Shown: positions 618 to 14,008 of the stretch, in pieces
How positions within the stretch are numbered: position 1 is the first letter of the stretch
Layout of the letters: each line of letters starts with the position of its first letter
NCBI GenBank assembly: GCA_013375475.1
Contig: JABXKD010000083.1
Span: forward strand, 1 to 15,538
Source of the DNA: Promethearchaeota archaeon
Lineage (GTDB): Archaea > Asgardarchaeota > Lokiarchaeia > Sigyniarchaeales > SOKP01
Length of the DNA: 15,538 bases
Reading direction: 5' to 3'
Notes under the pieces: model-generated
Databases searched by the model: none
What the model was told of the DNA's origin: nothing
The model's input: the letters and a program-made list of their open reading frames with translations, nothing else
Program-made: the position numbers and the translations under genes

Positions 618-1133
618 TTATTCGCCTTGATAATTAATCAATTCTTTTTCAATCATTTTTATCAATTCGAGAGAAAAAGGTATGGAATTCGCCAGTACAT
701 TGACTAATTGATAGACCTTGTCAAAACCATGCATATCTTCTATAGAAACCTTTTCCTTATCAATATCTTCCTTAATTGTATTTATTTTTTTAGCGAATTT
801 TGAGATGTCGCTTGTAAGGTCTCTGAACGAATGAATAAAGGCTACAATTGGATTTCTCATTGAATAAGTAATTTCCCCAGTGTTAGACACACCAGTCTTT
901 TCGATTAGATCCATAGAAATTAATTTTTTAACTTCTTGTGATATTGTTCCTCGCGAGAATCCAGTAAGCTCTTGCAATTTTTCTTGAGTTAAGGATTTTC
1001 GGGTAATAAAATAAATTTTAATTGTTATAAAAGTAGTTTTTTGCCCGATAAAAAGGGAATAGGACGTGAGGAATTTAAAGATGTCCTTTTCAATCACTCG
1101 TATTTCGTCATCAAATTCTTCGATTGTATTCAA
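618..1133 (-). CDS. Winged-HTH transcriptional regulator, GbsR/MarR-like (subtype B, copy 1)
   Basis: HTH segment LTQEKLQELTGFSRGTISQEVKKLISMDLIEK followed by a helical C-terminus. GGAGG site upstream of the TTG start. The start overlaps the upstream stop by 4 nt (TTGA). Confidence 0.8.
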   Translation of the reverse strand: MNTIEEFDDEIRVIEKDIFKFLTSYSLFIGQKTTFITIKIYFITRKSLTQEKLQELTGFSRGTISQEVKKLISMDLIEKTGVSNTGEITYSMRNPIVAFIHSFRDLTSDISKFAKKINTIKEDIDKEKVSIEDMHGFDKVYQLVNVLANSIPFSLELIKMIEKELINYQGE

Positions 1134-1912
1134 GTCTTATCCTCCCTAAGCTCTTTTATAAAAGTTGATTCATTAATCTTTTCTAGCAATTTTACATTAT
1201 ATTCAAAAAAGTTAATCATTTCAGTTACTCTTTTTGAGAGTATATTATAGCCGTTTTTATCTTTATTTTTGTCTAATTCTTGAACCTTACTTAATAAGAA
1301 TTCAATTGCGCGTTCATTAGATTCAGATTTATAAGATCCAATGTTAGAGGCAATATCAGCCATATTAGTTCCTAAGGTATAGAGATATTCGCGTTTTCCT
1401 TCTAAAGGTTCTTTTTTTATTGCAGGAGCACTCGATAAGATCTTTAAACTCTGAGAGATAGCGCCTTTTGAAAACCCTGTTAATTCTTTAAGTTGTGTTT
1501 GAGTTAAACTTTCATGGAGTAGTAAATAACCAACAATAGAGCCAAAAACAGCGTTCTGACCTTTGATTTTACCAGCATCAACCAGAATTTCTATTAAACG
1601 CTTTTCATAAACCCTAACTTTCCCTTCATATATGTGTGATTTGCTTTTTAGATGTTGTGCATAGCAGAGATCAAATGTTTCTTCCATGGCATTCCATAAT
1701 GCCTCGGTTTCTTCATCGTTAACCTCAAGGTCTTTAAAACTTGTTTTTAATTGATACAATGAATCATTTTCCCAAATTGGATTTGTGAGGAAATCTTTTA
1801 TTGTTTCTTTTAAGTAATTAATATTTCTACCTTTGTTTTGACTTAAATAACTTTGAATTATAGCCTTAGTTAATTCCAAAATATGCTTAAATTTTTCTGA
1901 ATTAGTTTGCAT
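1130..1912 (-). CDS. Winged-HTH transcriptional regulator, GbsR/MarR-like (subtype A, copy 1), with ~90-aa N-terminal extension
   Basis: IVGYLLLHESLTQTQLKELTGFSKGAISQSLKIL...KREYLY matches a GbsR-like HTH and wing. The C-terminal ~170 aa align by eye with ORF 4414..4929. Confidence 0.8.
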   Translation of the reverse strand: MQTNSEKFKHILELTKAIIQSYLSQNKGRNINYLKETIKDFLTNPIWENDSLYQLKTSFKDLEVNDEETEALWNAMEETFDLCYAQHLKSKSHIYEGKVRVYEKRLIEILVDAGKIKGQNAVFGSIVGYLLLHESLTQTQLKELTGFSKGAISQSLKILSSAPAIKKEPLEGKREYLYTLGTNMADIASNIGSYKSESNERAIEFLLSKVQELDKNKDKNGYNILSKRVTEMINFFEYNVKLLEKINESTFIKELREDKT

Positions 1913-1989
1913 CTATAAAGGTTATGAAATCTGGCTACGATATTTAATATTCCTTAGATATAATATGGGAATACTTATTATTAAGTATT

Positions 1990-2099
1990 TTCAAAATTCA
2001 TGAACTTTTTATGTTTCATTTTCACTAAAAATGAAAATGTTTATAAGTGTAAAAAATATTTAGTATCATGGTAATAAAACAATTTTCAAAAAAGGTGAA
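1990..2099. promoter_or_regulatory. Three TTCA-N7-TGAA palindromic boxes (1990-2004, 2021-2035, 2085-2099) around the putative ABC promoter (TATA-like TTTATAAG at ~2040-2047)
   Basis: Read directly: TTCA-aaattca-TGAA, CATTTTCA-ctaaaaa-TGAAAATG (8-bp perfect arms, 2017-2039) and TTCA-aaaaagg-TGAA (overlaps the AGGTGA ribosome site). Operator role is inferred. Confidence 0.7.
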
Positions 2100-2105
2100 A
2101 GAAAA

Positions 2106-3062
2106 TTGAATGCGATCGAAATAAAAAATCTAAAAAAATATTATAACAAAGGAAAGATTAAAGCGGTTGACGGAATTTCACTCAAAGTTCCAAAAGGAGC
2201 AAGATATGGATTTTTAGGACCGAACGGTGCAGGAAAAACGACGACAATTAGATGTATTTTAGGTTTTCTTAATATCGACAGTGGAATAACTATGATCAAT
2301 GGCGAAGAAATTAACCCGAAAAAGGATGTTAAATTTAGAAACCAAATTGGGTACCTTCCAGGTGAGCTTGGGCTCTATAAATACATGACAGCAGAACAGT
2401 TAGTAAAATATTTTGCAAAACTCTTTGATATTGAAATCGACTGGAAATTCATTAAGGATGTCACAGAAAGACTTGAAATTGAAATGGATCGGAAAATGGG
2501 TGTGCTCAGTAAAGGAAACAAACAGAAAATAGGTGTTTTAACCGCCTTAATGGGTAAATACGACATTCTAGTTATGGATGAGCCAACCTCTGGTCTAGAT
2601 CCTTTAATGCAATCTGAATTTTATAGGATAATTGCTGAACGCCAAGAAGAGTCTAATTGTACCGTTTTTGTATCTAGTCATGTGCTTCCCGAAATTGAAA
2701 AATTTTGCGATCAAGTTGCCATTATTAAAAACGGTAAAATTGTAGAAGTCTCCAGTGTTCAGGAGCTTAAAAAGAAGAGTTTAAAACGAGTTGAGCTAGA
2801 TTTTGAAAACAATAAAGGTTTATTGGAATTTAAGTCGTTTCTACTATCAGAATTTCCTGAGGCGATCTTAAAGCAAAATTATCAAAAAAGAATCGAATTT
2901 CTTCTCCCTTATAACCAGTCTCGCGACATATTGCAGTATTTAAGTAAAAATAATTGGGCGGGAATGCCCATTAAAGACTTTACCATTACACACTCAACTT
3001 TGGACAATATCTTCCTGGAATATTATAAAGATTCTAATCAAAAAGGAGGTGAAATTGTTTGA
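2106..3062 (+). CDS. ABC-2 type (drug/peptide exporter family) ATP-binding protein
   Basis: Walker A GPNGAGKTT, signature LSKGNKQK, Walker B/D-loop ILVMDEPTSGLDP, H-loop SSH. Confidence 0.95.
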   Translation: MNAIEIKNLKKYYNKGKIKAVDGISLKVPKGARYGFLGPNGAGKTTTIRCILGFLNIDSGITMINGEEINPKKDVKFRNQIGYLPGELGLYKYMTAEQLVKYFAKLFDIEIDWKFIKDVTERLEIEMDRKMGVLSKGNKQKIGVLTALMGKYDILVMDEPTSGLDPLMQSEFYRIIAERQEESNCTVFVSSHVLPEIEKFCDQVAIIKNGKIVEVSSVQELKKKSLKRVELDFENNKGLLEFKSFLLSEFPEAILKQNYQKRIEFLLPYNQSRDILQYLSKNNWAGMPIKDFTITHSTLDNIFLEYYKDSNQKGGEIV

Positions 3063-3874
3063 AGGTGATTCAAACTACCTTAAAAGAGATAAGGTATAGC
3101 ATTAAAGGAATTATAATTCTTGCTTTATTATTTGGATTATTTTTTCTAGCATTCATGGCTATCTACGATCCTACGCTCTTTGAAGATATGGAAGCGTTAC
3201 TTGCAAGCTATCCTGAAGCAATTGTCGCAATGGTTGGAAAATATATCGCATTAACAACTTTTGGAGGTTTTTTGAACGTATATCTCTTTTCAATGACTTG
3301 GTTTTATTTTGGTTTCTATTTTATAATAAAAGCAGCGCAGGATATACCCAAAGAAATCGAGGATAAAACAGTTGATATTATTTTGTCAAAACCTATTAAG
3401 CGGTGGAAATTTGTAATAGGTAAATATGTGCGGCATGTAATAACTGCGTTTATTCTTGTTGCTTTTTCAAGTCTAGGAGTTCTTATTGGTGTTTTTGCTT
3501 TTCCAACTATAGTTCCGAGCGAAGTATACTTTAACGAGATATACGCGGTGTTCCTATGGCTTTTTGTATTTTTAGTTGCATTGATTAGTACATCGTTATT
3601 CTTTTCGACATTTCTCCGTCCACGGCGTGCACTTACCTTTAGCTTTGCTGTTATAGTTTTTTTTTATATTGTAGGGATATTCTGGGAAGCGTTTCCAGAA
3701 GCAGTCCAAGGCATGAAATTTTTGAGTATATTTTATTATTTTGAAACATCGAATTTGCTTGTAAACCATGTCTGGGATAATGTTCTCCTAAACATTTTAA
3801 TTCTAACGGGATATTCAGCATGTATGGTAGGCTTATCAGTGTTTATATTTAATAAGCGAGATATTCCCGTTTAA
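3059..3874 (+). CDS. ABC-2 type transporter permease
   Basis: About six hydrophobic segments and the motif EIEDKTVDIILSKPIKRWKFVIGK, ending in FNKRDI. GGAGGTGA at 3045-3052. Overlaps the ATPase stop by 4 nt. Confidence 0.9.
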   Translation: MKVIQTTLKEIRYSIKGIIILALLFGLFFLAFMAIYDPTLFEDMEALLASYPEAIVAMVGKYIALTTFGGFLNVYLFSMTWFYFGFYFIIKAAQDIPKEIEDKTVDIILSKPIKRWKFVIGKYVRHVITAFILVAFSSLGVLIGVFAFPTIVPSEVYFNEIYAVFLWLFVFLVALISTSLFFSTFLRPRRALTFSFAVIVFFYIVGIFWEAFPEAVQGMKFLSIFYYFETSNLLVNHVWDNVLLNILILTGYSACMVGLSVFIFNKRDIPV

Positions 3875-3883
3875 TTTTTTTTT
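3875..3883 (+). terminator. Oligo-T tract at a convergent gene junction (putative archaeal-type terminator)
   Basis: T-run directly after the permease TAA, abutting the stop of the convergent regulator. Confidence 0.4.
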
Positions 3884-4403
3884 ACTTTATTTCTAAACTT
3901 TCGGAAAATTTTTCATATATTTTAATTGCTGGTAGATAGAAGTCTATAACTTTCATGACATTATCGTAACCATTCATTGTTTCAAGTTTACTGCGCTTAG
4001 TTTCCATTTCATTTTTCATTTTATCAAGGTGATCTTGCCACTTAAGCATCGCAGCGATGATGTTTTTAATTCTAGCAGTAGAAATCTGTTCAACTGATTC
4101 GAAAGTATATACTTTTCTACGAATACCAGGGATTTTCTTTCTAATAATCATTCCTGAATCTACAAGATTATTTAGTTCTTGTGAGATTTTCCCAGACGAG
4201 TAACCAGTGAGATGTTTAAGGAGATGTTGGGTTATTTCCTTTCTTAACATTATATAGATTAAGATTTTAGTAGTAATTTCGTTTCTAGTAGAGTAAATTG
4301 GAGATTTAATCAGATGCTCTACGATTTCTTTCTCAATTTTTCTTACCTTATCGTCATAAGTATCTTCTTCATCTTCCATTTCCTTACACTTCCCTTTTTT
4401 CAA
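3882..4403 (-). CDS. Winged-HTH transcriptional regulator, GbsR/MarR-like (subtype B, copy 2); start may be ATG 4379
   Basis: ITQHLLKHLTGYSSGKISQELNNLVDSGMI. N-terminus YDDKVRKIEKEI parallels FDDEIRVIEKDI of 618..1133, and C-terminal MNGYDNV parallels MHGFDKV. Confidence 0.8.
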   Translation of the reverse strand: MKKGKCKEMEDEEDTYDDKVRKIEKEIVEHLIKSPIYSTRNEITTKILIYIMLRKEITQHLLKHLTGYSSGKISQELNNLVDSGMIIRKKIPGIRRKVYTFESVEQISTARIKNIIAAMLKWQDHLDKMKNEMETKRSKLETMNGYDNVMKVIDFYLPAIKIYEKFSESLEIK

Positions 4404-4422
4404 TTATCAATTATCAATTATC
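4400..4422. repeat. 7-bp tandem repeat (TCAATTA)x3
   Basis: tcaatta tcaatta tcaatta tc spans the junction between the two regulator genes. Confidence 0.8.
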
Positions 4423-4929
4423 GCTTAACATTTTAGTCATCGAAGGCGTAATCTTCATAACCTTTTTATATCCATCTAATAACACATTTAATTGAGTGCG
4501 AAGATTTTTGTAACCTTCTTTGCCTTTATATTCTTCCAATTCGTTCAATTTATTTTCCATAAATTTAGAAATTAAAGTAAACTGCTCAATTGAAACCTCG
4601 CTAGATGTTTCAAATATTTTTGGAAGATCTCCAATCTTTGAATATAGATTCATATTACTCGATGCTATTCTTTCTTTTTGTACTACGCCAAGCTCAACTA
4701 AATTTCCAAGTGTTGCTGAAATTGTACCAGAAGAATACCCAGTTAGTTCTTTCAAATTAGATTGAGATAACTTATCGTGAATGATTAAATATCCAAGAAT
4801 CTCTTGGATCTTTGCAGGTGTATCTTTGTTCTTACCAATATCTATAAAAAATTTAATAAGAGTTTTTTCGTAATCTTTGATTTTTCCTCTAAATCTAAAA
4901 TCGTAATCTGGCGCTTGGTTTGAATTCAT
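4414..4929 (-). CDS. Winged-HTH transcriptional regulator, GbsR/MarR-like (subtype A, copy 2)
   Basis: ILGYLIIHDKLSQSNLKELTGYSSGTISATLGNLVELGVVQK. GKIKDYEKTLI parallels GKVRVYEKRLI of 1130..1912, and KEGYKNL parallels KNGYNIL. Confidence 0.82.
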   Translation of the reverse strand: MNSNQAPDYDFRFRGKIKDYEKTLIKFFIDIGKNKDTPAKIQEILGYLIIHDKLSQSNLKELTGYSSGTISATLGNLVELGVVQKERIASSNMNLYSKIGDLPKIFETSSEVSIEQFTLISKFMENKLNELEEYKGKEGYKNLRTQLNVLLDGYKKVMKITPSMTKMLSDN

Positions 4930-4950
4930 TAATTCTATATTGTTTTTAGA

Positions 4951-5067
4951 GTTTTTAAACTTTTCATATCATGTGAAGTTTCATAAAAAATGAGGAACCT
5001 TTAAATAGGTAGTTTACTATTCATAATATGAACATTTCAAAACTCATGAAAGTTCATTAAAATTGAA
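4951..5067. promoter_or_regulatory. Divergent promoter region with TTCA-N7-TGAA boxes (4963-4977; 4980-4994 with one mismatch; 5036-5050; 5053-5067), an N5 variant (5020-5032) and TATA-like boxes (minus ~4952-4959, plus ~5000-5007)
   Basis: Read directly: TTCA-tatcatg-TGAA, TTCA-taaaaaa-TGAG, TTCA-aaactca-TGAA, TTCA-ttaaaat-TGAA and TTCATA-a-TATGAA. Function is inferred. Confidence 0.7.
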
Positions 5068-5108
5068 GAAATAAAATAATAAAAAAAAGAAAAGGGAGTG
5101 AAAAGAAA

Positions 5109-5363
5109 GTGATCTCAGAAAAAGAATTTAAAAATTACGAAGAAGTTCCCTATAATGAAGAGCCTGAAATGATAAAGAAGGAAAAAAAAGTTGAGAAAAT
5201 TTATGAAATGATTGAACAAGAAAGAATATATGATATTTTTCCTACCTATGATCTTCAAGACGAGAAATTGACTCAAGATATATTCGAGATTTATAAAGTT
5301 CTATTCTGGGGAGTAGCTGCCGTAGCTTCCACACTCCTATGGTTATACTTTTTCATAACCTAA
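5109..5363 (+). CDS. Small hypothetical protein with charged/acidic N-terminus and a single C-terminal transmembrane helix
   Basis: GTG start after GGGAGTG. Hydrophobic tail VLFWGVAAVASTLLWLYFFIT. Fills otherwise empty space and ends 1 nt from the convergent PHP stop. Confidence 0.7.
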   Translation: MISEKEFKNYEEVPYNEEPEMIKKEKKVEKIYEMIEQERIYDIFPTYDLQDEKLTQDIFEIYKVLFWGVAAVASTLLWLYFFIT

Positions 5364-5364
5364 T

Positions 5365-6141
5365 TTAAGATCTATGAAGACCTGGATCCAGATATGGTTT
5401 TTCAGAATATAAAATCTTAGTTTGTTTCTTTTTTAATTCTTCTAATAACGCTTCCTCGGTAAATTCTTTAAGCTTTAATAATGTCCAGCCGTGAACTCCC
5501 CCACTTAGCAATTTAACGGGACTATGCATATCTGTTCCGGTAAGCATTCCAATTTCTCTATTATGTTTCGTACAAAAATCATAGGATTCTTGATCAAAGA
5601 CATTTTCTGGGAGAGAATCGTCATTAACAATCTCGATATAATCAACTCCCCATTCCAATAAGGTTTCTCGAGTTGGATGGTTTTTGTATTTGGCTTCATA
5701 TAAACTCCATGGAATATGGTTACAGACAACTATGCCGCCTTGATCATGAACTTTGTTAATGGTTTCAATAATCTTTTCGTCTTTAGGTCTATAAGGTACT
5801 CTCGTATTCCATTTTGAGACGCCTAAGAAATTAAGATGAAGTCTATTAGTTGTCCATTCAATACCGCTAGTTATTAGAATGCCTTTTTTAATGTAATCCT
5901 CCTTAATTTTATTGATTTTCTCTAGGTGCCGCATATTATTATGATCGCTTATAGTTAAGGCATTATAACCCATAGCAATGTGCCACTCAACATTTTGTTT
6001 TATTGTAAGTTTTCCATCGCTGTAGTTTGTGTGCGAATGATGATCGTATATTAAATTATAAGCATTCATATCATATTTTGGAATTTTAAGAGGTTTAACA
6101 TTTTTCCAATCATCATCTGAGTAGACACTTGATAAAGGCAT
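5365..6141 (-). CDS. PHP-domain metal-dependent phosphoesterase
   Basis: Motifs DHHSHTNYSDG, ISDHN, GIEW...H, NHIP, IEIVN and GTDMHS. Confidence 0.9.
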   Translation of the reverse strand: MPLSSVYSDDDWKNVKPLKIPKYDMNAYNLIYDHHSHTNYSDGKLTIKQNVEWHIAMGYNALTISDHNNMRHLEKINKIKEDYIKKGILITSGIEWTTNRLHLNFLGVSKWNTRVPYRPKDEKIIETINKVHDQGGIVVCNHIPWSLYEAKYKNHPTRETLLEWGVDYIEIVNDDSLPENVFDQESYDFCTKHNREIGMLTGTDMHSPVKLLSGGVHGWTLLKLKEFTEEALLEELKKKQTKILYSEKPYLDPGLHRS

Positions 6142-6156
6142 GAAATTCTTTACATC

Positions 6157-6945
6157 TCAGATTGATTTTCTATTATAAAGTTCTTTTACAAAAAAAGTCG
6201 CAACATTCTCAGAAAATGTGTTAGGGCCAAAACCAGCATCATATCCTAATTCTTTCGCAAGTTCATTCGAAATTCTAGCACCACCACAGACTAAAACAAT
6301 TTTATCTCTTATCTCCTCAGCTTCCAGCAGATCGACAAGGTTGGTTAAATTTCTCACATGGATATCTTTCTGTGTTACAGTTTGGGAAACAAGAAGTACG
6401 TCAGCTTTTAGTTCTATAGCTTTTTTTACGAATGTTTCGTTTGATACTTGACTACCAAGATTATAAGCTTCAATCAGCTCATACCGCTCTAGTCCATAAT
6501 GCCCAGCAAAGCCCTTCATGTTCATAATCGCATCGATTCCTACCGTATGTGCATCAGTCCCAGTTGTAGCGCCAATAACAACCAACTTTCGTTTTATTTC
6601 GGTTTTAATGAAATCATTTATTTCTTCAATTGTCATCGCTTCAACTTCTACAGATTCTGCCTTTATTTTTGTATAGTCTATTGAGTGCTTTAAGCTTCCA
6701 TATAACACAAAATATGTGTATCCTTGATCTAAAGATACATGATATGCTATTGAAGGTTCTTCTATCCCCATCTTCTTACCAAGTTTTAATGCTGCAATTA
6801 TAGCTTTTTCTCCATCATCTACAGGAAGAGTAAAACTAACTTGTATTTTTCCGTCATTCATTGTGTCTCCATACGGTTTGATTTTTGTTAGATCTAAATT
6901 CTTGTCAAAATCTTTCTTTTCTGTAGAGTAGAGTCCCCCACCCAT
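6157..6945 (-). CDS. kamE: Lysine 5,6-aminomutase beta subunit (cobalamin-binding)
   Basis: KPYGDTMNDGKIQVSFTLP N-terminal domain, B12 base-off motif DAHTVG, PLP lysine in MNMKG, and LLVSQTVTQ. AGGAGGTGA ribosome site; TAATG overlap with kamD. Confidence 0.96.
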   Translation of the reverse strand: MGGGLYSTEKKDFDKNLDLTKIKPYGDTMNDGKIQVSFTLPVDDGEKAIIAALKLGKKMGIEEPSIAYHVSLDQGYTYFVLYGSLKHSIDYTKIKAESVEVEAMTIEEINDFIKTEIKRKLVVIGATTGTDAHTVGIDAIMNMKGFAGHYGLERYELIEAYNLGSQVSNETFVKKAIELKADVLLVSQTVTQKDIHVRNLTNLVDLLEAEEIRDKIVLVCGGARISNELAKELGYDAGFGPNTFSENVATFFVKELYNRKSI

Positions 6946-8513
6946 TAGTCTTCACCTCCTAAGTTCAATTCGCTCGACATTATTTCCAGGATAGGATTGA
7001 AATAATCTTTGCTTTTAGAGATTACACCATCTGATCCCTTCCCACCATCAATAGGTCTTTTTATTTGGGCAAATATCCCTTTTTCTATTGTCTTGAACAG
7101 ACCCTCTTTTTCTATCTTAGTTAAAAGCTCATTAGCTTTATATAATACTTCAGAAGCTCGCTTCTGTATTATCCCCCCTTCTTTAAAGATGATTTCATTT
7201 CCTAAATCTTTCATATTTTTAAAAATATATCTCGCGTTTTCAATGGATAAAGCCCTATCTGACATGAAAGGGGTATGAATTCCTTCTGTTAACATTCCAA
7301 GTAAATGAATTCTCTGATTTGTAAGAATTGTAATCATGTTAAATAATGCGTCTTGAACGTGACCTTTAAAAATGTTTCCAGTCATATATTTTGTAGGGGG
7401 CATGTATTTTAAAGGAACGTTAGGGAAAATCTCTCTTGCCATTTGCGCTTGAGCAAGTTCGTATACAAAACCATTCTCCAATTCGGGATTCATTTCGAAA
7501 GCATGCCCTAAACCCATTTGCTCTTCGCTTAAACCTGCTAATTTCGCAAATTGCTCGTTAATGAATTGCGATGCCAGCACAGTATGAGCTGCCTCATAAG
7601 CGTCATCCGTGGTAAGATAATTGTCCTCTCCAGTATTGATAATAACACCTGCATATGCATTTATCATCCTTGAAAAATGTTGGTCAATCATCGTTCTTTG
7701 CATGTTTATATCCCGAAATAAAATTCCATACAATGCGTCGTTTAGCATCATATCTACTCTCTCGAAAGCGCCCATAGCAGCAATTTCTGGCATACAAAGT
7801 CCTGAACAATAATTAGTAAGCCTCACATATCTTCCTTCTTCTTTGCTCACTTCATCTAAAGCGGACCTCATTAGACGGAAATTTTCTTGAGTTGCATAAG
7901 TCCCTCCAAAACCTTCTGTAGTGGAACCATAAGGCACATAATCCAATAAGCTTTGTCCAGTAGATCTAATTACTGCAATAACATCTGCACCTTGTCTTGC
8001 TGCAGCTTTTGCTTGAATTATGTCCTCAAAAATATTACCCGTCGCAACAATTAGATAAATTAACGGTTCACTTTTTTCCCCATAAGTATTAATTAATTCT
8101 TCTCTGTATTGCATGTTTCGTTTGATAATATTCAAATTCTTCTGAATTATGGAAGATAACGCATTTTTGATTTCAGTTATATTATTTAAAGAATACTCTG
8201 TTATGTTTAATTGTTCTTGAGAAACTATTTCTGCAATATTTTGAGGTGATTTACGAGTATGCAGAATGGTATTTCCAAGGTATAGAGCAATACCATTTTT
8301 AAGTAATCCTGATTGTTGAACGTGATCTACCACAACATTGGGTAATGGAACTCCAAATTCATTAACCCCATCGATCCCTAATAATCTACAAATAGTTCTT
8401 TCAATTGTAGTAGTCGTGTGCTTACCAATGAATTTTTGCGTGTCAATAGCTATATCCCTCGCTATTTTTCTCGCACTCTCTACTATTTTAAAATCCAAAT
8501 TTAATTTATTCAT
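6945..8513 (-). CDS. kamD: Lysine 5,6-aminomutase alpha subunit
   Basis: YLIVATGNIFEDI, IAVIRSTGQSLLDYVPYG, GFGGTYATQENFR, NYCSGLCMPEIA, NTGEDNYLTT and PLKYMPPTK. Confidence 0.96.
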   Translation of the reverse strand: MNKLNLDFKIVESARKIARDIAIDTQKFIGKHTTTTIERTICRLLGIDGVNEFGVPLPNVVVDHVQQSGLLKNGIALYLGNTILHTRKSPQNIAEIVSQEQLNITEYSLNNITEIKNALSSIIQKNLNIIKRNMQYREELINTYGEKSEPLIYLIVATGNIFEDIIQAKAAARQGADVIAVIRSTGQSLLDYVPYGSTTEGFGGTYATQENFRLMRSALDEVSKEEGRYVRLTNYCSGLCMPEIAAMGAFERVDMMLNDALYGILFRDINMQRTMIDQHFSRMINAYAGVIINTGEDNYLTTDDAYEAAHTVLASQFINEQFAKLAGLSEEQMGLGHAFEMNPELENGFVYELAQAQMAREIFPNVPLKYMPPTKYMTGNIFKGHVQDALFNMITILTNQRIHLLGMLTEGIHTPFMSDRALSIENARYIFKNMKDLGNEIIFKEGGIIQKRASEVLYKANELLTKIEKEGLFKTIEKGIFAQIKRPIDGGKGSDGVISKSKDYFNPILEIMSSELNLGGED

Positions 8514-8558: not shown

Positions 8559-9611
8559 TTATAAGTTGTCACAAGGACCAAGATTGAATATAGGAACATC
8601 AATTCTCTCTTGTAATAATTTTATGAACTGGTTATTTTCAAATTCATATCCTAACGGTGAAGTATGATTAACTGTAATTGCAATTAAATTAATTCGATCT
8701 AGCACCTTTAAGCAGCCCCCCTTTTTTATAAATTTATAGAAAACTTGCTTGCTAATAAATAATTTAGTAGGATCTGTGGCGATTACAGTAAAGCCTTTTA
8801 CTTTTTTATTAGTGACAAATTCATCTAAAATGCTATCGGTTATCGCTCCCTTTATAACCAGATATTTAGCTTCTGTTGTCAAATGATTGAAAATTTCTTT
8901 TGATGATCCTAAAGCTGTAGACTCTTCTAATTTTTTTGATGAATAATCGCGATTTATAATTCCTATTTGAGCTGTGAGTAAAAGATCTCTACTGATTTTC
9001 CTAATTTTATCATCCTTAACTTTCTCTAAGTTAAATAAATCATAGATGTGGGATGTTAGATCAACAACGCTCTCCATATTTCTGGATACAGATGCTCCCG
9101 TGGACAATATGGTTGCATCAGAAATGATGGGCGTCGCGAAAGATCTCCTATCAAATGCACCATCAATAAAAATCACATCGCAACCGATCTTTAACATGTT
9201 ATTACATAATTCTTTTAACTGTTTATTCATTGAGGGCCCTGCTAGTTCAACATATCCGTTTTTATTTGCTTTGTAAATATTGATGTCTCCGAGTGGGGTG
9301 GTGAAATCAGTGCTTTTAATAATTTCGGTCTCAATTTCGCTATTCTTTAAAGAATCTTCAGCTGTAGCAAAAATGGTTCCTTTTTCAACTATAATCTTAG
9401 GTTTTGGAAGCTCAGTAATCGCGTCGTAAGATTCTCCATCTCGACCAATTGAAGTGACTCCAATTATCATATTATCTCTCAATATTTTTATTATGTGATT
9501 TAATGTGGTGGTTTTACTCACATTTTTAGCCAAACCAATAATTGATATAACCTTATACTTCTTTATAGCATCGATTAAGAGCGTCGGAAAGTCCTCATTA
9601 CCTTTCAACAT
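8559..9611 (-). CDS. kamB: KamB-like P-loop protein of lysine fermentation clusters (putative aminomutase reactivation component)
   Basis: SIIGLAKNVSKTTTLN, GVTSIGRDGE..D...LPKPKI, TPLG, VELAGPS, FIDGAFDR and ATILSTGA. Lies between kamA and kamD, as in bacterial clusters. Family assignment is from recall, not a search. Confidence 0.7.
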   Translation of the reverse strand: MLKGNEDFPTLLIDAIKKYKVISIIGLAKNVSKTTTLNHIIKILRDNMIIGVTSIGRDGESYDAITELPKPKIIVEKGTIFATAEDSLKNSEIETEIIKSTDFTTPLGDINIYKANKNGYVELAGPSMNKQLKELCNNMLKIGCDVIFIDGAFDRRSFATPIISDATILSTGASVSRNMESVVDLTSHIYDLFNLEKVKDDKIRKISRDLLLTAQIGIINRDYSSKKLEESTALGSSKEIFNHLTTEAKYLVIKGAITDSILDEFVTNKKVKGFTVIATDPTKLFISKQVFYKFIKKGGCLKVLDRINLIAITVNHTSPLGYEFENNQFIKLLQERIDVPIFNLGPCDNL

Positions 9612-9776: not shown

Positions 9777-11855
9777 TTGGTGATTATGAAAATCGAACTC
9801 AAAAAGCATTTTAAAGCATTAATAATAGTTGCAATTCTACTCATTATCCCGTCTTTTATCTCAGCTCCATCAAAAATAAATCCAAGACGAAGATGGGTCA
9901 ATGATCTTCCAGAAAACTATGATTTCTTGAGAAATTCTTACAATGCCACAATGGGATATGAAGCACGGAAAAACATTTATTTAACTGATAGTAATACTAG
10001 TGATGGAATTTACGCGCAATCCTCACGAGTCTATTTAAACGAGTCAGTAAATGAAGCTTCTTTTCAAAGTTCTCTTGATAAGATAAACAATCGAGAGGAT
10101 ACAGCAGACTTTCGAATGGGTTCAATACTCCGAACGATGTATCTCGATAATAAAACTAATGTTTTGGAACCATCGTTCAAATTACAGTTAAAAAATGCTA
10201 TATTAGGTTTTAAATATTGGTTTACAGAGCCTAACGATGACGCTATGATTATGTGGACCGAAAATCATATGATTCTCTTTCATTCTTGCGAACTCCTCGC
10301 AGGACAACTGTATCCAAATGAAACCTTTACTAATTCAGGGATGAATGGTACTCAGCATGTAAAACATGCCTTACCATTGGTTAATAGATGGTTAAATTGG
10401 AGAGCGAGATTTGGATTTTCAGAATGGCATTCTGATATTTATTATGAAGAAGATCTAATGCCGTTACTGAATTTGGTTGAATTTGCTCAAGATAATGATA
10501 CTGCTACTAAGGCAGCGATGTTAGTAGATATTCTAGCATTTGATTTTGCGAATAATTATTTTAAAGGAATCTATGCTACTACGAATGGTAGAACGGATGA
10601 CCATAAAAAGGTTGGAACAAGCCTCACAGATCCTCCGTCACGCGCTTCTTTTGCCGAATTTGCTTGGATTCTACTCGGAGTTGGACATCATGAAGAAAGT
10701 GGGAGTAGTAGTATGTCAGCCGTAGCTCTATCCACAAGTGATAAATATAAACCACCTCCAATATTAGAAGCTATAGCTAACGCGACTTTAGATTACAACG
10801 AACATAGAGATAGGAACGGTATTAATATTGCAGACGGTCCAAGCTATGGTTTTGGATACGAAAGCGAAGATGATTTAATGTTTTGGTGGCCTATGTCTAC
10901 TTTAGTCGCGGGCCCTGTAATTGAACCTACTTTAGATCTCATGAATACTTATGATCTTGATCCTAATTTGATCTTTGAAGATGAACTATTAATAGACCTT
11001 TTAAAAATAGCTGCAGATTTTTATGGAAGCACATTAAGCGAACTTTGCACATTCCTTAAAGAAGCAACTCAAGGAGTCGCTCTTGAAGAGGCGAACACCT
11101 ACACTTATCGGACTCCTTACTATCAATTATCAGGAGCACAAGACCACCAAAAAGGGCTTATGGGGATGCAAGAACACATATGGCAAGCGAGTCTGGATGA
11201 ATACGCTACAGTTTTTACAAATTCACACGGAGGATTTAGAGGTGAAGACCATGTGGGCGGTTTTAAGCCCCGAGCTACGCTCTATAAGAATGTGGGCGTA
11301 ATCCAATATGATCGTCTTTCTCAGTCTTTAATATTAGAATTAGTTTACGCGATTCTTGAATTCAAAGACATTACCCAAGCTTACTTCCCTCGATGGGCTT
11401 TTAACGAAGTAGTACAACAAGATAAATGGACATTTGGAAGAAGGTTAGATAGTTATGTTGCTTTATATTCAAATGAACCACAAGAATGGGAAGATGGTAT
11501 ATTTCTTACATCACAAGGTAAAAAGAATGTATACATCGTCGAATTGGGTAGTGTAGAGGATTATGGGACTTTTGCTAATTTTACTTCCTCAATCTTAGCG
11601 ACAAAACTAGATGTGATACATTTGTCCGTCGGTTATGGTGTTAGATATGTTTCTCCTACTCAAGGAACAGTAAAGGTGAATTGGGATGGTCCGATGACGG
11701 TAAATGGTGCACAGGTTGATTTAGGCTCTTATGCAAGATTTGACAATGACTTTTGCTTTCAAGACTTTAACACTCAAAAAACAACGATTCAATATGGAAC
11801 GATGACATTAGAATTAGATTTTGAGAACGCTACAAGAACTTATACTGAACTATAA
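9777..11855 (+). CDS. Secreted or membrane-anchored hypothetical glycoprotein, possibly heparinase II/III-like fold; start may be ATG 9786
   Basis: N-terminal basic plus hydrophobic segment KKHFKALIIVAILLIIPSFISA. Conserved-looking WTENH and GFSEWHSDIYYEED motifs. Helical N-half and beta-rich C-half. Ten N-x-S/T sequons counted. The fold is an inference. Confidence 0.7.
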   Translation: MVIMKIELKKHFKALIIVAILLIIPSFISAPSKINPRRRWVNDLPENYDFLRNSYNATMGYEARKNIYLTDSNTSDGIYAQSSRVYLNESVNEASFQSSLDKINNREDTADFRMGSILRTMYLDNKTNVLEPSFKLQLKNAILGFKYWFTEPNDDAMIMWTENHMILFHSCELLAGQLYPNETFTNSGMNGTQHVKHALPLVNRWLNWRARFGFSEWHSDIYYEEDLMPLLNLVEFAQDNDTATKAAMLVDILAFDFANNYFKGIYATTNGRTDDHKKVGTSLTDPPSRASFAEFAWILLGVGHHEESGSSSMSAVALSTSDKYKPPPILEAIANATLDYNEHRDRNGINIADGPSYGFGYESEDDLMFWWPMSTLVAGPVIEPTLDLMNTYDLDPNLIFEDELLIDLLKIAADFYGSTLSELCTFLKEATQGVALEEANTYTYRTPYYQLSGAQDHQKGLMGMQEHIWQASLDEYATVFTNSHGGFRGEDHVGGFKPRATLYKNVGVIQYDRLSQSLILELVYAILEFKDITQAYFPRWAFNEVVQQDKWTFGRRLDSYVALYSNEPQEWEDGIFLTSQGKKNVYIVELGSVEDYGTFANFTSSILATKLDVIHLSVGYGVRYVSPTQGTVKVNWDGPMTVNGAQVDLGSYARFDNDFCFQDFNTQKTTIQYGTMTLELDFENATRTYTEL

Positions 11856-12769: not shown

Positions 12770-14008
12770 TTATTTACTTAATTTTCTTTTTCTGAGGTTT
12801 CTCTCCAAATCTTCGGGTTCAATTGTCATTTTTTGACCACTCAGAAGGGCTGAAACACCGATTTGTTTTTCACAATCTTCGCAATGACACTCTGGTATGT
12901 AATTCGTAGGTTCTTCATAGGTAGTAATAACACCTTCAAAGTTCCTCAAAACAACTCGAGAGTTACCTTGAGAGATTGTGTAATCGGGCATAACGGGAAT
13001 CTTACCTCCTCCACCAGGTGCATCAACCACAAATGTAGGGACGCATAAACCAGATGTATGTCCTCTTAAACCTTCGATTATTTCAATCCCTTGCGCTACG
13101 CTCGTCCTAAAATGCCCTAGTCCAACTGATAAATCGCATTGATAGATATAATACGGACGAACACGAATTTTTACTAATTCATGAACTAATTTTTTCATCA
13201 CATGTATGCAATCATTTACTCCTCTTAATAAAACCGACTGGTTTCCAAGGGGAATACCAGCATTTGCGAGCATTTCACACGCTCTCTTAGAGTCTTCAGT
13301 GATTTCATTGGGATGATTGAAGTGAGTGTTAAACCATACGGGGTGATATTGCTTTAGCATCTCGCATAATTCAGGAGTAATTCTTTGTGGCATAACAACC
13401 GGACTTCTAGAACCTAACCGAACGATTTCCACATGCGAGATTTCCTTTAGGCTTATCAGTATGTCTTCTAATAATTTATCTGAGATGAGCATCGCATCTC
13501 CTCCTGATAATAAGACATCCCTAATTGAAGAGGTCTCTTGGATATATTCTAGGCATTTTTCTATTTGATCCTTTGGAGGTGCTTTATCGTGATGACCTGC
13601 GAATCGTCTTCGCGTACAGTGTCGACAATACATGGAGCAATTTTCTGTTACAAGGAATAAAACGCGATCGGGATACCTATGAGTTAAACCGGGAGTGGGA
13701 CTATCAACCTCTTCGTGAAGAGGATCCTCTAAATCACCGGGGTATCTAATGAGCTCATGTAATGTAGGAATTGCTTGTTTCCGTATTGGATCATAAGGAT
13801 CGTGAGGATCGATTAATGATAAATAATAGGGAGTGATAGCCATTCTCATCTTTTCCATGATACTCGGATCGTCTTCTTCCTTGGTTAAAGGAATGAACCC
13901 TTTGAGGTCTTCGATAGTAGTTATCCTATTTTTAAATTGCCATCTCCAATTGTTCCAATCTTCATCGATCACTTTTCCGAATAGTTCCATTCGTCTATTT
14001 ACTTTCAT
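12770..14008 (-). CDS. kamA: L-lysine 2,3-aminomutase (radical SAM, PLP)
   Basis: WNNWRWQ, GLTHRYPDRVL, CSMYCRHCTRRR (CxxxCxxC), DVLLSGGD, NQSVLLRGVND, DAPGGGGKIP (PLP Lys) and C-terminal CHCEDC zinc site. Confidence 0.97.
   Translation of the reverse strand: MKVNRRMELFGKVIDEDWNNWRWQFKNRITTIEDLKGFIPLTKEEDDPSIMEKMRMAITPYYLSLIDPHDPYDPIRKQAIPTLHELIRYPGDLEDPLHEEVDSPTPGLTHRYPDRVLFLVTENCSMYCRHCTRRRFAGHHDKAPPKDQIEKCLEYIQETSSIRDVLLSGGDAMLISDKLLEDILISLKEISHVEIVRLGSRSPVVMPQRITPELCEMLKQYHPVWFNTHFNHPNEITEDSKRACEMLANAGIPLGNQSVLLRGVNDCIHVMKKLVHELVKIRVRPYYIYQCDLSVGLGHFRTSVAQGIEIIEGLRGHTSGLCVPTFVVDAPGGGGKIPVMPDYTISQGNSRVVLRNFEGVITTYEEPTNYIPECHCEDCEKQIGVSALLSGQKMTIEPEDLERNLRKRKLSK

Follow-up and report, generated by a model that had tools for sequence, protein, structure and literature searches.

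The first 15,538 nucleotides (nt) of contig JABXKD010000083.1 of the Promethearchaeota archaeon assembly GCA_013375475.1, referred to here as the window, carry four open reading frames (ORFs) that encode winged-helix proteins of the GbsR/MarR type. All four are on the minus strand and form two pairs, in each of which a gene of one class, termed B, is followed by a gene of a second class, termed A. The genes are as follows (aa, amino acids):

1130..1912, minus strand: B1, first gene of pair 1, 260 aa; a B-class Mj223/GbsR-like winged-helix module, falling in class B in both of the trees described below
618..1133, minus strand: A1, second gene of pair 1, 171 aa; an A-class module
4414..4929, minus strand: B2, first gene of pair 2, 171 aa; a B-class module
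3882..4403, minus strand: A2, second gene of pair 2, 173 aa from its TTG start; an A-class module

A first-pass annotation of this DNA had described four GbsR/MarR-like genes arranged as two pairs of the same order and orientation. The ORFs, their strand and their family all stood up to analysis, the best solved relative being Mj223 (1KU9), a GbsR-family template. The genes had also been said to group by position and not by neighbour, and BLASTP agrees: all four are mutually homologous at 26-32% identity, and the top scores are those between genes in the same position (75 bits for B1-B2 and 66 bits for A1-A2, against 40-61 bits for the A-B combinations). At E<=1e-5 these four are the only family copies in the genome (3.92 Mb, 288 contigs). 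Each pair is read here, with moderate confidence and from sequence, as probably encoding the two subunits of one Mj223/GbsR-type repressor, an obligate and autoregulated B-A hetero(pseudo)dimer. What the sequences show directly is the homology of the genes, their fixed order, the existence of natural B-A fusions, and the clustering and conservation of the operators that adjoin them.

The proposed translational coupling of pair 1 was borne out: the genes overlap by 4 nt, with the TTG start codon of A1 laid over the TGA stop codon of B1 (TTGA) and a GGAGG sequence 9 nt upstream. Stop and start codons also overlap in the pairs of several relatives. As listed, B2 and A2 are 10 nt apart; translation of A2 probably starts at an internal ATG (4379), which would give a protein of 165 aa and a gap of 34 nt, because the orthologues (164-165 aa) begin at that methionine. 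The genome-search match to A2 likewise begins at the methionine of 4379, and the listed TTG (4377-4403) is probably too far upstream. At 4400-4420, from the TTG listed as the A2 start through the intergenic spacer to the B2 stop codon, the sequence TCAATTA is repeated three times head-to-tail and may mark a slippage-prone B2/A2 junction. B1 differs in length by an N-terminal extension of about 90 aa (1646-1912) with a DFLTNPLW-like motif; it has no Pfam match, is kept in 10 of the 11 relatives aligned (247-293 aa), and could be a sensor or partner-binding domain.

Positional classes and fusions among relatives

Relatives were sought in 41 genomes of the same order, the window's own (G000) included; 19 of these had matches, and 31 loci were taken for a profile search of their ORFs. 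The loci hold 14 adjacent same-strand pairs, counting the two of the window, 15 ORFs that each contain two modules (352-397 aa in 14 cases and 300 aa in the other) and one internal singleton (L060). Single-module ORFs at contig ends (L062, L063) are of the class that fits a partner cut off there, and two are fragments (L043 and L064), one of which is at a contig end. L043, an internal 81-aa ORF at 6507-6752 of its locus (genome G008) beside URO-D-like genes, matches the C-terminal part of the module only and looks like the remnant of a decayed family member.

In a maximum-likelihood tree of 61 modules, which leaves out the two fragments only, one branch splits the modules by position (ultrafast bootstrap (UFBoot) 96 and Shimodaira-Hasegawa-like approximate likelihood-ratio test (SH-aLRT) 98, rough values from a bootstrap that had not fully settled). 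One side of this branch holds 14/14 second genes and 13/15 C-terminal halves of fusions, and the other holds 14/14 first genes and 14/15 N-terminal halves, so that position and class agree for 28 of 28 split genes and for 27 of 30 halves of fusions. The misplaced halves (L054 C, L058 C and L059 N) are on long branches, and a perfect positional split was not rejected by the approximately unbiased (AU) test (log-likelihood difference 9.69, p-AU 0.166). Terminal clades in the B class mirror those in the A class, and the B-A unit therefore appears to have been inherited as a whole.

A profile of the 28 split proteins, run against 1.84 billion cluster representatives, found 908 representatives at E<=1e-3 (50% identity), of which 345 score <=1e-10 and 155 <=1e-30. 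Two modules are present in 89 of the 150 best-scoring library representatives and a single module in the other 61; the ranking favours fusions in that two-module scores are summed. Hidden Markov models (HMMs) of the two classes, trained on split proteins only, assign the N-terminal halves of fused proteins to B in 89/89 cases and the C-terminal halves to A in 87/89, and divide the 61 single-module library proteins into 32 B and 29 A. The tree and the class HMMs thus uphold the first-pass expectation that A and B are separate classes that are consistently adjacent, B then A. Most members of the family are B-A fusions, which by the classic argument from gene fusion suggests that B and A work together. 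Where the source gives a name it is always 'hypothetical protein' of a Promethearchaeota archaeon; as a lead only, the ESM Atlas holds unnamed fused clusters of about 353-356 aa from Promethearchaeota and Thorarchaeota. The clade was observed only in archaea that carry one or the other of these two labels.

An even sample of the phylum (201 genomes) points the same way. There, 65 genomes have a match at E<=1e-8, with 23 of 40 in the window's own family, and 76 of the 81 matches at E<=2.9e-25 have their partner adjacent or in the same open frame, by an eye count. Of the five remaining matches, four belong to two-module ORFs, three of them interrupted where the contig ends and one with its first module truncated, and the last is in a 375-aa frame.

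The recognition head, LTQ..L..LTG.S.G.IS..L, and a tyrosine in the wing form the best-conserved part of the module and are equally conserved in both classes. Residues specific to each class are found just ahead of the head, YF.TR in A and YL.IH in B. An apparent 11-residue insertion of the A proteins, seen in a four-sequence MAFFT alignment, was ruled out as a class marker by profile alignment, in which the distance from the wing tyrosine to a glycine is 47 in 98 of 118 A or C-terminal modules and 38 to 51 in B or N-terminal modules.

Operators, putative promoter elements and neighbouring genes

Both pairs are divergent from genes on the plus strand that are their presumed targets:

2106..3874, plus strand: presumed target operon of pair 1; a DrrA-like ABC ATPase gene (2106-3062) followed by an ABC-2 permease gene (3059-3874)
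5109..5363, plus strand: gene for an 84-aa protein, the presumed target of pair 2; the protein is acidic in its N-terminal part and has a hydrophobic stretch in its C-terminal part that, judged by eye, is probably a transmembrane helix

The first-pass annotation had placed each pair divergent from a membrane-related target across a region with the same palindrome. The divergence stands for both pairs, and so does the palindrome; the description of the target has to be amended for pair 1, where the operon begins with a cytoplasmic ATPase and the permease comes second. The intergenic regions beside pair 1 (IG1) and pair 2 (IG2) hold three 17-bp palindromes each, TTTCAY-N5-RTGAAA, six sites in all, around TATA-like boxes that were called on the archaeal promoter consensus. 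The putative elements are listed here, with the strand where one applies:

1989..2005: IG1 operator site 1, TTTCAAAATTCATGAAC; half-sites kept and spacer varying in 4 genomes
2014..2036: IG1 operator site 2, TTTCACTAAAAATGAAA (2020-2036, an exact match to the palindrome), preceded by an additional TTTCAT half-site
2040..2047, plus strand: TATA-like box TTTATAAG toward the ABC operon, called by eye; TTATA kept in 4 genomes; it begins 3 nt after the end of site 2
2084..2100: IG1 operator site 3, TTTCAAAAAAGGTGAAA; downstream of the TATA-like box and ahead of the start of the ABC ATPase gene, overlapping a GGTGA ribosome-binding-like sequence
4952..4959, minus strand: TATA-like box TTTAAAAA, 22 nt upstream of the B2 start codon; invariant in 5 genomes
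4962..4995: two abutting 17-bp operators of IG2, TTTCATATCATGTGAAG and TTTCATAAAAAATGAGG, filling the gap between two divergent TATA-like boxes
5000..5007, plus strand: TATA-like box TTTAAATA toward the small membrane-protein gene; invariant in the 5-genome alignment
5035..5051: IG2 operator site 3, TTTCAAAACTCATGAAA; follows TTTAAATA at a distance of about 27 nt and is near the expected transcription start

With only 22 nt between its TATA-like box and the B2 start codon, the arrangement suggests that the B2-A2 transcript is leaderless or nearly so. The context AAC(C/T)TTTAAATAG of the plus-strand TATA-like box of IG2 recurs in locus L036.

The palindromes are concentrated in the two intergenic regions. 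In the window, TTTCAYN5RTGAA with at most one mismatch gives 10 matches at 6 sites, compared with 3.4 expected window-wide, and only 4 of 200 shuffles reach 10; all 6 sites are within IG1 (1989, 2020, 2084) or IG2 (4962, 4979, 5035), two regions that jointly account for 2.4% of the window. Genome-wide, the 17-mer occurs 138 times with at most one mismatch, and IG1 and IG2 are the only clusters, a cluster being at least two sites within 120 bp. The half-sites are also the part that is conserved: in the abutting sites of IG2, counted by eye over an alignment of 5 genomes, 6 of 24 half-site columns vary compared with 7 of 10 spacer columns, and in the IG1 sites of 4 genomes the half-sites are likewise conserved and the spacers variable. 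Over 29 regulator loci (305,282 nt), 10 of 10 exact 17-mers and 18 of 34 one-mismatch sites are found in the upstream regions of the first regulator genes, 6,960 nt in sum.

The same arrangement is encountered beside fused proteins. The fused paralogues at L036 and L038, from two genomes of the same genus, have four sites each, laid out as in IG2: after the regulator's TATA-like box come two palindromes end to end, a 4-nt gap, a second TATA-like box (TTTAAATA in L036 and TTTTTATA in L038), about 22-24 nt, more sites, and the divergent gene. One layout in cis thus appears to be used both by the fused B-A protein and by the split B+A pair. Upstream of the more distant fusions L047-L049, L052-L055, L058, L059 and L061 the motif is absent. 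A genome-wide motif scan identified no additional member of a regulon beyond IG1 and IG2. Three further exact 17-mers in the genome were set aside as regulon sites, all being inside ORFs, and so were the non-coding sites with at most one mismatch, 41 of 45 of which are isolated and several of which lie over ATGAAA start codons.

Among the split pairs of the window and its relatives, 7 of 14 are, like pair 1, divergent from an ABC ATPase and an ABC-2 permease, 5 of 14 are of the pair-2 type and divergent from a small ORF, and 2 of 14 have other neighbours. The 84-aa protein belongs to no Pfam family; it is 67-88% identical in 4 relatives and in every case divergent from the pair-2 orthologue. 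The neighbours of the fusions are diverse, and include a condensation-domain acyltransferase with a radical-SAM protein, a PEP/pyruvate dikinase-like protein, DUF998 and TatD. The acyltransferase (PapA/AATase-like) is the gene from which the fused paralogues at L036:1917-5983 and L038:4567-8786 are divergent, with four exact or near-exact operators between; the L036 fusion is additionally upstream of a radical-SAM/SPASM gene.

Gene order beside the pairs differs between some relatives. In L040 (genome G024) a FGGY kinase gene comes directly after pair 2 and its small divergent ORF, and in L035, on a contig of G014, A1 is followed downstream by a gamma-glutamyltranspeptidase gene and then the FGGY kinase gene. 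Comparison of the two orders suggests that the ABC operon, pair 1 and the transpeptidase are missing from G024 as one block. Within the window, the small membrane-protein gene is convergent with a gene for a PHP-domain metallohydrolase of the CehA/McbA family (5365-6141), which adjoins the pair-2 unit in G002 too. Genes of the lysine-fermentation type are also present: the B12-binding beta subunit (6157-6945) and alpha subunit (6945-8513) of D-lysine 5,6-aminomutase, and lysine 2,3-aminomutase (12770-14008). The ORFs at 8559-9611 (350 aa) and 9777-11855 (692 aa) match no Pfam family at E<=1e-4.

Fold, proposed mechanism and alternatives

At the level of public family models the four proteins are only marginally recognizable. 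The Pfam family MarR_2 (PF12802; cut-off 27 bits) is reached by B2 (27.6 bits) and falls short for A1 (21.9), B1 (19.3) and A2 (19.0); B1 has a weak match to HTH_34, and some fused homologues carry precomputed PF12802 matches in public records. Scores remain far below the cut-offs of the NCBIfam models for CudC (NF047500; best 24.4 bits, cut-off 218) and Lrs14 (NF040939; about 16-20 bits, cut-off 90), and Sta1 is also far sub-threshold. By profile, the match to Mj223 has an E-value of 2.2e-10 and is nearly end to end, residues 13-147 of 171 in the query aligning with 5-146 of 152 in the chain. The proteins thus have the fold and the full-length similarity of the Mj223/GbsR subfamily; they depart from its single-gene organization in that the clade consists of fixed-order B+A pairs or B-A fusions.

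An AlphaFold2 model of the natural fusion at L038 (369 aa; 14-sequence alignment) has a mean predicted local distance difference test score (pLDDT) of 85.6 and a predicted template modelling score (pTM) of 0.80. Its sole disordered internal stretch is the linker at 185-200, and each half is modelled as a complete subunit, with four helices and a wing followed by long helices. The C-terminal half superposes on 1ku9_B (VIA: Z 10.2, root-mean-square deviation (rmsd) 4.3, 149 of 151 residues aligned) and the N-terminal half on 4nb5_A (Z 9.1, 144 of 145 aligned); Foldseek gives TMt 0.62-0.67 for the 1ku9 and 4nb5 entries, with 0.65 for Mj223. Because the chain consists of two equal modules, its pTM of 0.80 would mean that the packing between the B and A modules is confidently placed in the model. 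By both profile and model, the four proteins are members of the MarR superfamily in its Mj223/GbsR branch, whose rule of single-gene homodimers they would break.

Two-domain Sar proteins, such as SarS of S. aureus, SarU and SarY, arose by internal duplication and carry two DNA-binding modules in one chain, so that the monomer mimics a dimer. SarS (1P4X) is similar to the B-A fusions in having two winged-helix modules of the MarR superfamily in a single chain, an analogous architecture, yet the superposition is poor (E 2.7e-3, TMq 0.18, TMt 0.26, rmsd 17.9) and does not support a specific relationship. The two-domain Sar proteins differ also in being bacterial and in lacking long C-terminal helices of the Mj223 type, and to our knowledge no split two-gene form of them has been described. 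Classical MarR, MepR and MexR are autoregulated repressors encoded divergently from efflux systems, with palindromes over the promoters. The present genes resemble mepR in that a small winged-helix gene is divergent from an efflux or exporter system; they differ from all three in having two subunit classes, where those are homodimers of one gene product, and predicted archaeal TATA/BRE-type promoters (BRE, TFB-recognition element), where those have bacterial sigma-70 promoters, and only B2 reaches the MarR_2 cut-off.

The GbsR family itself (GbsR, OpuAR, OpcR, CudC) shares with B and A an N-terminal winged-helix head and long C-terminal helices; in models of the GbsR type it is these helices that make up the dimerisation domain (PMC6207618). 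According to that paper, Mj223, the template for GbsR-family models, is a homodimer in the crystal, the choline-responsive members have an aromatic-cage inducer site in a region absent from Mj223, and many gbsR-type genes, like those described here, adjoin transporter genes (PMC6207618). In contrast to the members known from that source, which are single-gene homodimers, the present family has two paralogous classes in fixed order, fused or adjacent, and the presumed target of pair 1 is an ABC-2 exporter and not an osmoprotectant importer. Neither the B-A family nor any GbsR-type regulator of heterodimeric or fused form was found described in the literature outside subscription journals; the word 'heterodimer' does not occur in the GbsR family paper (PMC6207618), and neither 'heterodimer' nor 'homodimer' occurs in PMC6246914.

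These features may add up to a repressor; that it is a heterodimer, that it represses instead of activating, where the promoter elements lie and that a ligand releases it are points that we infer. B and A, encoded by the first and second gene, would be ancient paralogues made in equal amounts from one transcript, with overlapping stop and start codons in pair 1. They would assemble into a pseudo-symmetric heterodimer, the split counterpart of the single-chain B-A fusion. Because both heads carry the same motif, LTQ..L..LTG.S.G.IS, one B-A unit could read one 17-bp quasi-palindrome, the half-site centres of which are 11 bp, or one helical turn, apart. The three sites of each intergenic region would flank the TATA-like box of the divergent target, and those of IG2 would also abut the box of the regulator operon; occupied sites would block access of TATA-binding protein (TBP), transcription factor B (TFB) and RNA polymerase. 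Repression of the target is suggested by the way in which the sites bracket the TATA-like boxes. The genes repressed would be the ABC-2 exporter (pair 1) or the 84-aa membrane protein (pair 2), together with the regulator itself, at least for pair 2, until a ligand, probably related to the exported substrate, released the repressor.

Several points weigh against such an obligate heterodimer. Known GbsR/MarR proteins, Mj223 among them, are homodimers (PMC6207618). Recognition of DNA would itself need no heterodimer, because the palindromes are near-perfect and the recognition motif is common to both heads. The pseudo-dimer geometry of the fusion is drawn solely from the pTM, and AlphaFold2 may pack homologous halves by analogy with homodimers. 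The motif counts for the window and genome are partly circular, because the motif was derived from IG1 and IG2 themselves; the relatives form the independent part of the test, and there the orthologous loci are non-independent observations. The TATA-like boxes and transcription starts are by-eye assignments. Finally, 15 weaker matches in other families of the phylum (L069-L081, L083 and L084; re-scored domain E-values 1e-13 to 1e-20) are lone, partnerless genes of 160-225 aa that score nearly equally with the A and B class models. In a quick tree of 68 rows, which omits the two fragments and the halves of L049, L058, L059 and L061 and which is unrooted and hence directionless, the lone genes group as a single clade (SH-aLRT 96), which falls on the B side of the A|B split (89). 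A lone form, presumably homodimeric, is therefore present outside the duplicated clade and may be the unduplicated one.

Much of this would also fit the rival that survives best, in which B and A are separate, co-transcribed homodimers on neighbouring palindromes and the fusions pair between chains (B-B' and A-A') to give a 2+2 assembly over abutting operators. It would agree with the homodimeric state of GbsR/MarR proteins (PMC6207618), with palindromic operators that occur in abutting pairs, with a single recognition motif common to both heads and with the existence of lone relatives. It is nevertheless considered unlikely, if far from negligible, as an invariable order of B before A, nearly equal numbers of the two classes and overlapping stop and start codons are what is expected of one complex and not of independent regulators, the AlphaFold2 model of the fusion reaches its pTM of 0.80 as a single chain, and IG1 has single sites and not solely abutting ones.

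The direction of control is a separate matter. Some archaeal regulators activate transcription from just upstream of the TATA box, and the B-A unit could be an activator or a dual regulator that recruits TBP/TFB from sites in such a position; sites 1 and 2 are indeed upstream of TATA-like boxes, and factors of the MarR type include activators (PMC6207618). This appears improbable, given that only 3-4 nt separate the end of site 2, which covers the expected BRE, from the TATA-like box, that the third site is downstream of the box and near the expected transcription start, and that the regulator's TATA-like box, too, adjoins the sites in IG2, a bracketing that would be typical of repression. Least probable by a wide measure is that the proteins are non-regulatory winged-helix scaffolds, such as kite subunits of the ScpB/MukE type or tandem winged-helix proteins like those of ESCRT-II: a weak Pfam match of A2 to SMC_ScpB (E 0.0099, below the cut-off) and Foldseek matches to multi-winged-helix proteins such as RPC62 and MukE/MukF hint at it, but those structural matches have template modelling (TM) scores of 0.14-0.30 and rmsd above 19 Å, each half fits a whole Mj223 subunit, the adjoining promoters hold conserved clustered palindromes, and the helix-turn-helix recognition motif is the best-conserved part. 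RPC62, of RNA polymerase III, was the top Foldseek match by E-value and was rejected (TM 0.2-0.3, rmsd above 19 Å).

Under the favoured reading of B and A as two subunits of one repressor, the further question is whether the two pairs mix. Cross-pairing (B1-A2, B2-A1) is possible, because both intergenic regions share the half-site; it cannot be obligatory, because G024 has pair 2 only and G018 has only a pair of the pair-1 type.

Significance of the B-A family

Regulators of the MarR/GbsR type are textbook homodimers. Here, a whole clade seems to have replaced the dimer by two fixed paralogous subunits, fused or split, and would constitute a natural system for asking what asymmetry gives a symmetric repressor; one ligand site, one contact with the basal machinery, or insulation from paralogues are among the possibilities.

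A bolder proposal, to which only a small probability is attached, is that Asgard archaea possess a network of obligate heterodimeric regulators whose subunits could cross-pair (B1-A2, B2-A1) where a genome has more than one pair or fusion using the TTTCAY half-site, and so exert combinatorial control over shared operators. Were this so, the network would be a prokaryotic counterpart of the heterodimerising transcription-factor families of eukaryotes, and repeated fusion and fission would amount to a switch between insulated (fused) and mixable (split) forms. The case for the proposed B-A regulator family itself is solid on comparative grounds, whereas its biochemistry is a prediction. With it, the Asgard archaea would gain a local regulator family with a defined operator and defined target genes, one that could be approached in vitro without culturing the organism.

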